Part shown: positions 529 through 11,197 of the stretch, one piece after another
Numbering within the stretch: the stretch's first letter is position 1
Layout: every line of letters begins with the position of its first letter
Assembly (NCBI GenBank): GCA_934613415.1
Contig: CAKTSY010000002.1
Location: forward strand, 1 to 32,000
Source of the DNA: an uncultured Opitutales bacterium
Lineage (GTDB): Bacteria; Verrucomicrobiota; Verrucomicrobiia; Opitutales; Intestinicryptomonadaceae
DNA length: 32,000 nt
Direction: 5' to 3'
Notes under the pieces: model-generated
Told to the model about the DNA's origin: nothing
Database searches by the model: none
The model's input: only the letters and a program-made list of their open reading frames with translations
Program-made: the position numbers and the translations under genes

Positions 529-1015
529 TTATTCGACACCTTCTATCTCTTCATATACTAGCTCTTGAACATAATACTTCTTCCCCTTATAGGTGTAATA
601 CGGGTGTGCATATAAAAACAATCCGTCGTAGTTGCTAGCCAGCTCCAAATATTTGTTTATATCAAAATCTATAAACTGGTCGGAATTTGCGGTCATAAGG
701 GGGCTGTCGTTGTCGATTAGGGGTTCAGCTTTCAATACGGTACAAACTTGTCCTTCTGTAATGCCGTCTATGCCTATAATTTCAACGTCGTCGTCTAATC
801 TTTGCAAAAGTTCTTTTAGGCCATATTTTTTAATATGCTCGTTTTGGCATATGAAAATAAATTTATGCGGCCATTTGCGGTTTTAAGTTGTTAACAACAA
901 CCTCTATCATAGGTTTTCCGCAAACGTCTATAAGCGGTTTCGGCAAATCGTATCCTGCCTTTGAAAATCGGCTCCCCAAGCCAGCCATTGGTATGACAAT
1001 ATTTAATTTATTCAT
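529..1015 (-). pseudogene. Sugar-phosphate nucleotidyltransferase, frameshifted and apparently 3'-truncated
   Basis: The minus-strand ATG at 1015 opens MNKLNIVIPMAGLGSRFSKAGYDLPKPLIDVCGKPMIEVVVNNLKPQMAA*, with the stop at 863-865. This is the N-terminal G-x-G-x-R nucleotide-binding loop of sugar nucleotidyltransferases. The family-like sequence continues in the +1 frame (..KWPHKFIFICQNEHIKKYGLKELLQRLDDDVEIIGIDGITEGQVCTVL..MTANSDQF..AHPYYTY..) down to the stop at 529. The two frames can only be joined within about 866-885. The combined length of ~155 aa is shorter than the ~230-250 aa I remember for this family. The start overlaps the upstream stop by 8 nt (ATGAATAA). Confidence 0.7.
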
Positions 1016-2750
1016 ACTGTTCCTTTATTTTCTGGTATATTGATTTTTTGTTTTTGCACTTTGCGTAGTTTAGTTTGTGCACAAAAGATTTTTTTGTTAT
1101 TTCCTCCCAAAGCGGTTGGGAGAAATCTTTGTTTATATTTTTAAGCAAAAGATGGGGTATTGTGTCGTCGCAAATTTCGCAATTTAAGCTGCGAAAATAT
1201 TTATATTCGAGCATTACATCGAGCAATATATGGAGTATAAAATAGTGAGGGATTGACGGCTCGTTTTTTATATATTCGGTTAACAATTTTAACAATGCGC
1301 CTATTAACGGATTTTGTTTTTTTACAACAATAAAGCTGCTTAAGCTATTTACTCTGTTGTTGGGGTCCCACGAAAAATATTTGGGGTTAAACATTTCCCA
1401 TTCTTTATGGCAGGTTGGGCGCGCCCCTCTTTGAAACATAAAAAACGGCGCATCTTTAATGTTGTTTGGAATGTCGGACGAAAAGTAGCAGGTGGCATCT
1501 GCCCAAACCCCGCCATATGTATACAATAAATACAAGCGCAAAATATCCGAGAACAATGCCATCTTTGCGGGTTTTGCATTTAATGTTTTGTCGTATATAT
1601 AATCGGGGATATCCACATATTTAGATATTGTGTTTTTGTCTATAACTATGTGCTTTAGGGTTCCTTTATGGGTATCTGCCGATTTAAACGATATTTTCAC
1701 TACATCGCTTGAAATGTTCTCTTGCCCCTGATACCAAAATTGCCATAGCGAGCTGTTGTCGGCAATATCCGCCTTTTTTGGCAATGTTTGCAGTTCGGGA
1801 ATTTCGCCCTTTAAATAGGGCTCAACATAGTTTTTGCGCAGCTGCTCGGCCAATATATTTTGCTTTGAAAAATCGTTTTGTAAATTGCTTAGGCAAAATG
1901 TGCGCAGCCTTTTCCGTAGGGGTTTATAAGGAATTATAGAAGAAAGCCCCTTTAGTGCATATAAAAACGGAATGTGTGCATTAAGCTTTTTTAAGACAGA
2001 GCATAATTTATTGTATGCAGAAAAAGAGTGGTAATAAATGTCTTGTATGGTAGAAGTGGCAAATAAACTTTTTGTTTTTATTCGGTTCTTATTTCTGCCT
2101 GCAATTGTAGATTCAAATTCAGATTCGCTATATATATATGAATATGGGCGCAGCCCCAGCCTTTTAACTTTTGTATGCCAGTAAAAATCCGAATCGCTGT
2201 CTACCGGGCGGCCAAACGGTATGCAATTTTTTAAAAGTGTTTTTGCCGCATTGTACGAAACTGCATCTATTGGCGTTTCGCCCGAAAATCTTTTGTATTC
2301 GACAAACTCAAAACTGTTGCATGTGCGTATGGTTTTTGCTTTGTCTAGCCTGCCAGATTTTCTGTAGCCAAGCTGCAGGTAGCCGAAATCGCCATTATAG
2401 TTTTTTAAAAAATCTATTACTTTGCAAAGGTTGGCGTTTGGAATGGCATCGTCCTCTATAGTTATTGCAAAATCCAGGCGGTCTTCCACAATCTTTTGCC
2501 AGCAGTATATATGGCTAATGTAGCAGGCAATTTCCGCCTTCGACATATACCTTGTCATTAAGCGTTTGTTTAGTTGCTTAGAATAGTATTTGTTTATTTC
2601 GCTTTCCGAAAGATTTTGTGCATCGGCTGCCTCTATTCGCTCGAAGGATATATTTAAGCCAGACAGTATTTTTGAAATATTTGCCAACCTATCTGTAGCG
2701 CGGCGTAAATTTATAACAAAAACTTTATATCTTGTCCCAAGTCTGTCCAT
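1008..2750 (-). CDS. Two-domain glycosyltransferase: N-terminal GT25 fused to a C-terminal GT32-like / capsular-polysaccharide-synthesis (DXD sugar-binding) domain
   Basis: 580-aa ORF. The N-terminal ~250 aa carry GT25 hallmarks: YKVFVINLRRATDR, EIACYISHIYCWQKIV and ITIEDDA. The C-terminal ~250 aa carry WQFWYQG and ALFSDILRLYLLYTYGGVWADATCY, typical of the GT32/Caps_synth sugar-binding region. Confidence 0.8.
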   Translation of the reverse strand: MDRLGTRYKVFVINLRRATDRLANISKILSGLNISFERIEAADAQNLSESEINKYYSKQLNKRLMTRYMSKAEIACYISHIYCWQKIVEDRLDFAITIEDDAIPNANLCKVIDFLKNYNGDFGYLQLGYRKSGRLDKAKTIRTCNSFEFVEYKRFSGETPIDAVSYNAAKTLLKNCIPFGRPVDSDSDFYWHTKVKRLGLRPYSYIYSESEFESTIAGRNKNRIKTKSLFATSTIQDIYYHSFSAYNKLCSVLKKLNAHIPFLYALKGLSSIIPYKPLRKRLRTFCLSNLQNDFSKQNILAEQLRKNYVEPYLKGEIPELQTLPKKADIADNSSLWQFWYQGQENISSDVVKISFKSADTHKGTLKHIVIDKNTISKYVDIPDYIYDKTLNAKPAKMALFSDILRLYLLYTYGGVWADATCYFSSDIPNNIKDAPFFMFQRGARPTCHKEWEMFNPKYFSWDPNNRVNSLSSFIVVKKQNPLIGALLKLLTEYIKNEPSIPHYFILHILLDVMLEYKYFRSLNCEICDDTIPHLLLKNINKDFSQPLWEEITKKSFVHKLNYAKCKNKKSIYQKIKEQYE

Positions 2751-2848
2751 ATTTGCAGAAAAATCTATTCTTAAAATTAAAATACCACTGTGTATATTGT
2801 CGTAAGGTAAAAACCGTCCAAAGGGCGAATGCGCTGCAGAATGTGTCT

Positions 2849-10245: not shown

Positions 10246-10246
10246 C

Positions 10247-11197
10247 TTATTGCCTTTTTTGTTTTTTTAAATTTTTTGCGCTAGTTAGTGCGCGTTCAAT
10301 TTCGTTGCATAGCGCGTAGCGCACCGCTGCTTGTAGACCGCGATTGTCCGAAAATTCTCGGTTTATGTATTTTATTTTTGTGTTTTTCGGGCATTCGTTT
10401 TTTTGTTTAAAAGAAGTTTTGTAAGTGGAAAAAAGATACCCGTGTAAATCCGACGGCACCTTGCTTAAAAGCGATTCCGGGCACAAAATAATTGGCTTTT
10501 TGCCTTTGCCTACGGCAACGCCTGCTTCGTAAAGCACATTGCTGTTAAAAAACGTATAGATTATGTTTTGGTTGGCATCGGCAATTGCGATGTTGTCGTT
10601 TAACGGCGGGTTTTGTGCCAAATCAAAAACAAGAAGAGCCGAATCGTCTATGCGCCGTAAAATTTCGTCGTGTACAAAACATGCGTGCGATGCCCTTAGT
10701 CGCTTTATGCTAATTGTTATTTGATTTTCGTATTGCTTTTCAAGCGATTCGGCAATTTTTCTTAAATATTCTCGAATGCTTATCCAATAGGGGTCTTGGT
10801 AGACGCTTAAATCTTTAGCCCAAGAATAACCCACAAACACATTTAAAACTATCCCTAGCGTTTCGGACGCTGTGTCGGATATAGGGGGAATGTCGGCTAC
10901 TATTTTTTTTAACCACGCATCAAAGCGGTCTCGTTGCGATTCAAACCAGTGGTTTGTTATATAGTATTTGCCGCCAAAAATATCTTTCCAATATCGCAGT
11001 TTCCCTTTGTCGTCGTATAACTTGCTTTCGCTTTCCACCAGCATGGGGAAGTCTAGCCCGAAAGTATCCTTGCAGAACTTCTTGTCTTTAAGGTCATTTA
11101 TAACTTCGGGGGACAAAATCTCTTGATAAAAAAGTTCGCGCATTGCGCCCCTTATATATTCTCCGATTTTTTCGTCCAGCTGTTGCTCTTTTTTCAT
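10247..11197 (-). CDS. Cytoplasmic protein with an unplaced N-terminal domain and a C-terminal TIR-like (COG4271 / CAP12-PycTIR-type) domain
   Basis: 316-aa ORF with no signal peptide. LNVFVGYSWAKD resembles the TIR 'vFiSYs..D' start. NSNVLYEAGVAVGKGKKPIILCPESLLSKVPSDLHGYLFSTYK matches my memory of the family signature 'NVifElGyfiGkLGk.rv..L.....lPsDl.G....y', including the conserved Glu. The stop TAA (10249-10247) is separated by a single nt from the GTG of the giant ORF. Confidence 0.6.
   Translation of the reverse strand: MKKEQQLDEKIGEYIRGAMRELFYQEILSPEVINDLKDKKFCKDTFGLDFPMLVESESKLYDDKGKLRYWKDIFGGKYYITNHWFESQRDRFDAWLKKIVADIPPISDTASETLGIVLNVFVGYSWAKDLSVYQDPYWISIREYLRKIAESLEKQYENQITISIKRLRASHACFVHDEILRRIDDSALLVFDLAQNPPLNDNIAIADANQNIIYTFFNSNVLYEAGVAVGKGKKPIILCPESLLSKVPSDLHGYLFSTYKTSFKQKNECPKNTKIKYINREFSDNRGLQAAVRYALCNEIERALTSAKNLKKQKRQ

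Follow-up and report, generated by a model that had tools for sequence, protein, structure and literature searches.

The stretch of DNA analysed here, called the window, comprises 32,000 nucleotides (nt) of contig CAKTSY010000002.1 (assembly GCA_934613415.1) from an uncultured human-gut bacterium of the order Opitutales. It contains a cluster of six minus-strand genes, of which the first (gene 1) encodes a protein of 316 amino acids (aa) and the second a giant pentapeptide-repeat protein, followed by genes for glycosyltransferases (GTs) and a broken nucleotidyltransferase gene. A tyrosine recombinase is encoded divergently from the cluster, and an element of 193 bp, made up of a perfect 16-nt inverted repeat and the segment enclosed by it, fills the 212-nt gap between gene 1 and the recombinase gene. 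Taken together, the findings presented below make it probable that these genes form the cargo of a promoter inverton, i.e. an invertible segment that brings a promoter to the genes or takes it away from them.

The inverted repeat is not expected by chance, as five matches with at most two mismatches were found where 0.03 would be expected, and the core of the repeat, GTAT-N5-ATAC, has four copies in the 32 kb, forming exactly two pairs, against 0.19 expected. The ATG of the recombinase gene overlaps the distal arm of the repeat, and the presumptive invertase shows similarity only to distant Xer-like NCBIfam models, far below their cutoffs. An identical 316-aa protein was found encoded on 18 contigs of metagenomes, most of them from the gut of Hadza and other people. 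Six loci were retrieved (the retrieved loci are given L numbers), and the segment has the same orientation as in the window in L001, L005 and L006, and is inverted in L002, L003 and L004. The flanks of L003 are 100.000% identical to the window over 9288 and 5717 nt, and only the 193-nt element between them is reversed, a difference that directly attests to site-specific inversion at the repeats.

A TTGACA hexamer, located on the minus strand at 11243–11238, lies 3 nt inward of the proximal arm and is directed towards the operon. In all of the nine invertons first examined, representing five independent classes, there is a single TTGACA 2–3 nt inside one arm that points outward, and a TAnnnT-like hexamer is found 16–18 nt beyond it, just outside the repeat, in the invertons examined; the composite motif of repeat and TTGACA recurs across the loci, the hexamer there being TTGAC(A/T). 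Because of this common arrangement the TTGACA is read as the -35 region of a promoter that is split by the repeat, and with this polarity the switch upstream of gene 1 should be ON in the window and OFF in L002–L004, as well as in four more distant loci, L020–L023, described below. In the flipped, presumably OFF, state the TTGACA faces the recombinase gene with a predicted -10 region over its ATG, and the orientation of the segment might feed back on the expression of the recombinase.

The architecture of recombinase, inverton and cargo is conserved. A GTAT-N5-ATAC pair with 137–165 nt between the arms closely precedes the first cargo gene in all of the 13 related loci in which this region is assembled, namely L007–L010 and L012–L015 with homologues of the 316-aa protein, L018 with an Mrr_cat gene, and L020–L023 with other cargo; outside this count are L011, which has the proximal arm only, at the end of its contig, and L019, where the contig starts downstream of the region. 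The homologues of gene 1 are 38–51% identical to it and have the same repeat upstream, and the proximal 16-mer is identical in L007–L013. In all seven loci for which sequence on the recombinase side is available (L014, L015, L018 and L020–L023), the repeat pair is adjoined by the recombinase. It starts at or inside the distal repeat in L014, L015 and L018, with 57–59% identity to the recombinase of the window in L014 and L015, and is recognisable in L018 solely from a 133-aa N-terminal fragment. L020–L023 were found by a metagenome scan with the recombinase (57–65% identity), and in all of them a GTAT-N5-ATAC pair about 160–165 nt apart abuts the recombinase ATG. Compared with L007 and L012, L010 has its segment in the opposite orientation. 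Two tandem invertons of the repeat classes GTATTCATAATAC and GTATYTAAAATAC, which could give four promoter states, separate the recombinase from the 316-aa-type gene in L010 (14–529) and L014 (805–1328). The cargo of the sister switches is surface-related and includes PEP-CTERM proteins, an Acyl_transf_3 enzyme, and heptose and polysaccharide loci. Only 13 full-length relatives of the 316-aa protein were found among 5.8 billion proteins, always tied to these switches, and two GTDB genomes have the module, both metagenome-assembled genomes (MAGs) of Opitutales, one from Hadza gut and one from sheep rumen.

Table 1. Features of the gene cluster, its probable switch and the second candidate switch of the window.
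Feature	Position	Strand	Size	Remarks
Hairpin, likely terminator	472–497	-		After last gene; z -4.8
Frameshifted nucleotidyltransferase	529–1015	-	50-aa and 92-aa pieces	
Fusion of GT25 and Caps_synth (GT32-like, DXD)	1008–2750	-	580 aa	Caps_synth E 2e-60
GT11 glycosyltransferase, alpha-1,2-fucosyltransferase family	2849–3751	-	300 aa	PF01531 E 5e-37
GT25 glycosyltransferase	3751–4557	-	268 aa	PF01755 E 2e-31
Giant gene	4576–10245	-	1889 aa	GTG start; predicted secreted pentapeptide-repeat protein with PEP-CTERM sorting signal
Gene 1	10247–11197	-	316 aa	Predicted two-domain cytoplasmic protein; residues 1–100 uncharacterised, residues ~115–310 possibly CAP12/Pycsar-type TIR-like alpha/beta
Proximal inverted-repeat arm	11219–11234			21 nt upstream of gene 1 ATG
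Invertible segment	11235–11395		161 nt	Independent assemblies show both orientations, with identical flanks
Distal inverted-repeat arm	11396–11411		16 nt	GTATTTTAAATACGAT, core GTAT-N5-ATAC; perfect repeat
Tyrosine recombinase, divergent from operon	11410–12411	+	333 aa	PF00589 E 3.5e-13
Second candidate inverton	15258–15448			Arms 15258–15284 and 15422–15448; 137 nt between
Pentapeptide-repeat paralogue	15484–16899	+	471 aa	36 nt downstream of second candidate inverton

The original prediction, made from the letters of the sequence, described the six genes as one operon with minimal spacing, and every junction is reproduced by the open reading frame coordinates. There is 1 nt between gene 1 and the GTG of the giant gene and 18 nt between the giant gene and the GT25 gene, the GT25 and GT11 genes overlap by 1 nt, a gap of 98 nt precedes the fusion gene, and the ATG of the nucleotidyltransferase at 1015 overlaps the stop codon of the fusion gene by 8 nt. 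The six genes appear to form one tightly packed co-directional unit and are thus expected to be co-transcribed. The hairpin that was predicted to follow the operon is also present, with an 11-bp stem and -24.7 kcal/mol for the 76-nt context (z = -4.8), and no convincing internal terminator, which would divide the unit, is found on the minus strand, where there are 21 terminator-like sites against 18.4 in shuffled sequences. As predicted, no exosortase, flippase, polymerase or initiating transferase is encoded among the genes of the 32-kb window. The annotations of pentapeptide repeats, PEP-CTERM, GT25, GT11 and Caps_synth hold by Pfam and NCBIfam, while the TIR-like label of gene 1 stays below threshold; the prediction does not mention what is decisive for regulation, the probable invertible promoter with its recombinase directly upstream. 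After 50 codons a +1/-2 frameshift breaks the nucleotidyltransferase, and the N-terminal 50-aa piece matches NTP_transf_3 (E 2e-5); the frameshift is identical in all assemblies seen, so that either recoding should take place here or the gene is a pseudogene that has become fixed. Beyond the operon the source contig continues for only about 530 nt, and many assemblies break about 0.3–0.8 kb from the operon end, or in or near the recombinase and inverton. The G+C content is 0.37–0.43 in the operon region (1–12000) and 0.44–0.48 in the flank (12000–32000), where the rest of the window contains housekeeping and sugar-catabolism genes. The low G+C content and the assembly breaks fit a variable, repeated or horizontally exchanged region. 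Scans for tRNA genes and Rfam families gave no match in the window, and an island flanked by tRNA genes is therefore unsupported.

The product of gene 1 is predicted to have two domains (AlphaFold2 model, with a predicted local distance difference test score, pLDDT, of 74.6). PF10137, the CAP12/Pycsar TIR family, matches it with 19.4 bits (E 1e-3) and its relatives with 22.3–22.7 bits, the cutoff being 24.7, and the TIR-like label is thus weakly supported. The C-terminal half has a pattern that is invariant among the relatives, RLRASH...FD...FNxNVLxExG...PSDL, and the invariant E224 in FNSNVLYEAG aligns to the PDB Cap12 profile in a weak match (E 0.19). With PADLOC the sole match is to a TIR effector (13.9 bits, E 0.0047), no partner genes are found and no defence-system model is matched. 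A Foldseek search of PDB with the full 316-aa model gave no significant match, the best ones (E ~4e-3) being generic alpha/beta folds, and the TIR domains of SARM1 and RRS1 are ranked below these. Residues 1–100 (10898–11197) contain a domain of about 85–100 aa with the motif L.DK.YCK..F...P.L...D..G..RYW...KYY.CN.W, which belongs to no Pfam family when searched at E up to 5, and for which the AlphaFold2 model (pLDDT 91.7) has no structural neighbour in PDB by Foldseek. The 954 library matches of a full-length profile at E <= 1e-3 are split between the N-terminal and the C-terminal domain, and the N-terminal domain, which is independent and widespread, occurs either alone or fused to PD-(D/E)XK/HSDR_N, HEPN_Swt1, McrB-like AAA_5 or STAND modules. 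The position of gene 1 is taken by a small P-loop protein in L021 and by an Mrr_cat endonuclease-like protein in L018; the latter was also compared as a possible carrier of the N-terminal domain, which is not shared. The modules to which the domain is fused, and the occurrence of Mrr_cat and P-loop proteins at the position of gene 1, suggest that gene 1 may encode a defence-type enzyme under phase-variable control.

The giant protein shows pentapeptide repeats (PF00805, E 3e-130) over 21 stretches, with tandem A(D/N)LXX units. Its N-terminus, as read by eye, is signal-peptide-like (MKKLTTYILATITATAPLFA/ESYD), and at the C-terminus a PEP motif, a transmembrane helix and a basic cluster are present; this tail, VPEPATYAAIFGALALGLAVFRRRK, scores 20.3 bits with TIGR02595 (cutoff 16) and 19.1 bits with Pfam PF07589, where the cutoff is 20.7. 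It also has a conserved C-terminal domain of about 200 aa. There are 86 N-x-S/T sites in the protein compared to 58.5 +/- 5.9 in composition-matched shuffles, an excess that is due to the pentapeptide pattern itself, and only six D/E-x-N-x-S/T and seven D-S/T-hydrophobic sites. Around 7166–7629 the gene contains internal DNA repeats offset by 222 nt with about 80% identity, which reflect modular 74-aa units made of a pentapeptide block and a GLTQAQLE linker, and length variation could arise from them. No paper that links PEP-CTERM with pentapeptide repeats, including a passenger of 1.9 thousand aa, was found in the searched literature. The 471-aa paralogue shares the C-terminal domain of about 200 aa and the PEP-type tail with the giant protein, and has its own putative switch with no GT gene following. 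Here the TGTCAA on the plus strand at 15286–15291 would place the promoter element facing away from the cargo gene, and the second switch is accordingly read as being OFF in the window. It has the same orientation in all of five assemblies, none of them showing a flipped state, and it is therefore a candidate inverton by its architecture only.

The GT genes have Pfam scores above the gathering thresholds of the GT25, GT11 and Caps_synth families (109.8, 128.2, 204.7 and 101.6 bits). A GT block with the order GT25-GT25-GT11-fusion, where the fusion is 58% identical, is found in two diverged loci, L018 and L019, while the window has one GT25 gene before the GT11 gene. In L019 a 453-aa pentapeptide PEP-CTERM protein is encoded 18 nt upstream of the block. 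In L018 the order is recombinase, inverton, Mrr_cat protein, a 115-aa C-terminal remnant of a pentapeptide protein, and GT block, and here (2349–9255) the block is extended by GT6 and FucT_N/GT10 genes beside GT11, and together they would constitute a full ABO/Lewis-type glycan toolkit controlled by a switch of this type. Thus, a pentapeptide PEP-CTERM gene directly precedes the GT block in three of three loci, one copy being decayed, and a functional link between the PEP-CTERM gene and the GT block is therefore supported, but not protein glycosylation specifically. L007 and L012 have orthologous giants (2234 and 1775 aa) that share the signal sequence, the C-terminal domain and PEP-CTERM with the giant protein of the window, and GDP-heptose-type genes come after them. 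The homologue of gene 1 leads straight into heptose, GT and Wzx-type genes in L010 and L014, with no giant, and in L020 a WbsX-like glycosyltransferase fragment is located 172 nt downstream of the PEP-CTERM gene, which has its own switch. Enzymes of the GT25, GT11 and GT32-like types classically decorate glycans that are lipid-linked or part of lipooligosaccharide (LOS), and from the families a fucose/galactose decoration resembling the H antigen is the most likely product. Inside the fusion gene there is a (TA)5 tract at about 2129–2139, and L002 and L004 carry (TA)6 that splits the gene into 224 and 281 aa. Homopolymer slippage was considered for the split gene and rejected, since the change is from (TA)5 to (TA)6 and travels with 64 single-nucleotide polymorphisms clustered at 1164–3461. 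For the same reason the (TA)n change is a strain variant, phase variation being unproven, and the clustered polymorphisms suggest a recombined GT segment, possibly with slippage-based variation.

In the explanation that we prefer, the divergent recombinase would invert the 161-nt segment between the 16-nt repeats with the core GTAT-N5-ATAC, and the segment would bring the -35 region TTGACA, 3 nt inside one arm. In the ON state the arm with TTGACA would be beside the operon and the TAnnnT-like -10 region just outside the repeat would complete the promoter, so that transcription could run through all six genes to the hairpin at 472–497, and with the segment flipped the operon would be left without a promoter. 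The products switched together would be a two-domain protein of the cytoplasm, TIR-like in its C-terminal half, a giant beta-helical pentapeptide protein that would be secreted and should be sorted by the PEP-CTERM/exosortase system, and the GT25, GT11 and GT25-GT32-like transferases, most likely making a galactose/fucose (H-antigen-like) decoration on a glycan that would be primed elsewhere in the genome, with the (TA)n tract of the fusion gene as a possible second layer of variation. Some observations weigh against this explanation, namely that the orientations come from assemblies of different samples and not from reads within one population, that the putative -10 elements are weak (TAGCTT/ATAGCT), that a generic σ70 scan did not call the promoter of the segment, that the tail of the hairpin, UGUGUGUGUGUU, has no U-run, and that the 98-nt gap before the fusion gene gives room for an internal promoter. 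Generic terminator and σ70 scans are uninformative here, with counts at or below the shuffle levels. The recombinase could instead be the integrase of a mobile element with the repeats as attachment or terminal sites of no regulatory importance, and the operon would then be constitutive; its Phage_integrase domain and the lower G+C content of the operon compared to the flanks would agree with this. We reject this interpretation as extremely unlikely because the repeat-bounded element of 193 nt, inverted, is the sole difference between otherwise identical sequences. In addition, the geometry of recombinase and repeats recurs beside unrelated cargo in all ten other loci with an assembled recombinase side, and neither a tRNA gene nor any further gene of a phage or transposon is present in the window.

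Within the preferred explanation, a promoter inverton with surface cargo, the acceptor of the glycan and the role of gene 1 allow different readings. The original prediction raised the possibility that the giant protein is the destination of the glycan built by the GT set, and this could occur either by glycosylation or by exosortase transfer of the protein onto a glycan anchor, the latter likened to the use of A-LPS, a lipopolysaccharide, by the type IX secretion system. Its proposed comparison of synteny between the giant gene and the GT genes in relatives came out in favour, with the pairing seen also in L018 and L019, once with a decayed gene. The pairing in all three loci, despite the divergence to 58% of the fusion, its persistence at 37% identity of the pentapeptide protein (against the 471-aa paralogue of the window), the spacing of 18 nt between the giant and GT25 genes, the many N-x-S/T sites, and the giants located between the 316-aa gene and the heptose genes in L007 and L012 can all be taken in its favour. 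However, the pentapeptide pattern by itself should lead to an excess of N-x-S/T sites and the sites of the two more specific types are few, no oligosaccharyltransferase (PglB/PglL) or cytoplasmic N-glycosyltransferase is found among the genes of the window, nor is an initiating transferase or flippase, and the GT families are typical of LOS/O-antigen outer-core decoration, to which L018 adds GT6 and GT10. L010 and L014 are headed by the same first gene without a giant, and the 471-aa paralogue and the PEP-CTERM gene of L020 have switches, with no GT gene after the paralogue. A glycan on the protein, or as its anchor, is thus unlikely; the tight co-directional unit and the synteny stand from the original interpretation. 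Our best guess is a co-switched surface coat, with galactose/fucose decoration on a glycan primed elsewhere and displayed together with the fibre. For gene 1, an anti-phage enzyme made of a nucleic-acid sensor and a TIR-like NAD+/nucleotide hydrolase, co-switched with the coat so that receptor masking and intracellular immunity would vary together, is possible but rather doubtful. The weak matches to CAP12/Pycsar TIR are concordant (Pfam E 1e-3, PADLOC E 5e-3, PDB Cap12 E 0.19) and agree with the modules fused to the N-terminal domain and with the first genes of L018 and L021, but none reaches a curated threshold, Foldseek gives no significant TIR match (best E 4e-3), the N-terminal domain is without known function or fold, and a family of 13 members that is always tied to switches fits a locus-specific role as well as defence. 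Such a role might be that of a regulator, functionally analogous to UpxY/UpxZ, that promotes read-through of the long operon or inhibits sister loci. Gene 1 is always first after the switch while the downstream genes vary, conservation is higher in its first ~100 residues and in the 5' leader than in the rest, with mosaic sharing between P0008 and P0010, and several sister switches exist. This role is nevertheless very unlikely, considering that gene 1 has no NusG/KOW or other known regulator domain, that the switches of L020, L022 and L023 have no such gene, and that the unrelated Mrr_cat protein takes its place in L018. That all parts belong together as a glycoprotein coat plus immunity, where fibre and glycan form one structure, the glycan being either attached to the protein or the acceptor to which exosortase joins it, and the TIR-like two-domain enzyme is co-switched as the anti-phage arm, is a joint claim that we hold to be decidedly unlikely. 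If true, it would be the first concrete pairing of cargo and glycan for the exosortase system, and surface and intracellular defence would phase-vary from one promoter.

The gut Opitutales are uncultured and nearly unstudied, and the relatives found here are MAGs from Hadza gut and sheep rumen. With the promoter inverton, they would share the bet-hedging logic of Bacteroides and Akkermansia, using a recombinase family and a repeat motif of their own, and GTAT-N5-ATAC with an abutting TTGACA can be used to find such switches in genomes and to score their ON and OFF states in metagenomes. The predicted cargo is notable in combining a beta-helical surface protein of about 1.9 thousand aa with enzymes for host-like fucose/galactose epitopes. 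The pairing of a PEP-CTERM gene with a GT block offers a testable entry to the old question of what exosortase attaches its cargo to, and this conserved pairing of PEP-CTERM fibre and GT block is, like the novel leader protein, worth experimental follow-up.

The closest known system is found in Akkermansia muciniphila, where invertons control cps1 and are enriched near PEP-CTERM genes ("group 138"), with the motif CGGATT..AATCCG and 16-nt repeats about 158 nt apart (PMC13343947, PMC11892184), and the highest inverton density per genome is reported for Verrucomicrobia (PMC10028968). The phylum, the gut habitat, the near-identical geometry and a cargo of capsule/glycan and PEP-CTERM genes are common to both, but the switches described here have the GTAT-N5-ATAC motif, belong to uncultured Opitutales, have a dedicated recombinase abutting each switch, and in the window have a giant pentapeptide protein as cargo together with GT25/GT11 enzymes and the product of a TIR-like gene. 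In PEP-CTERM/exosortase systems the proteins have a signal peptide and a C-terminal PEP motif with a transmembrane helix and a basic tail, and these systems are associated with polysaccharide genes and are abundant in Verrucomicrobia (Haft et al. 2006, PMC1569441). The locus differs from them in having no exosortase within the 32-kb window.

In the capsular polysaccharide loci of Bacteroides thetaiotaomicron and B. fragilis, the promoter of a long glycan operon is invertible and has a recombinase gene beside it. They resemble the present loci in the combination of recombinase and inverton, a conserved leader gene followed by variable biosynthesis genes, and several sister switches per genome. 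They differ in that UpxY (NusG-like) and UpxZ are absent from the window, gene 1 having no NusG/KOW match, that the TTGACA is σ70-like and not the Bacteroidetes promoter motif, and that a secreted protein is embedded in the operon. The fimS switch of E. coli is 314 bp long with 9-bp repeats, uses two tyrosine recombinases (FimB-FimE) and has fimbrial cargo. It is a short promoter-bearing segment between short inverted repeats acted on by tyrosine recombinases, as the element described here is presumed to be, but in the window the -35 region is placed against the repeat with the -10 region apparently outside it. Phase-variable GTs of LOS and Lewis structures, such as Haemophilus lic2A and Neisseria lgt (both GT25) and Helicobacter futC (GT11), vary by repeat slippage only. 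They belong to the same families for host-like galactose/fucose epitopes and have a simple-sequence tract in the GT gene as well, whereas here the main switch should be promoter inversion and the (TA)n change is seen between strains only. No paper linking Opitutales and invertons was found in the searched literature. The mechanism as such is familiar, since capsule and PEP-CTERM genes controlled by invertons are known in Akkermansia, and the Opitutales locus has a repeat motif and a recombinase subfamily of its own, with unusual cargo.

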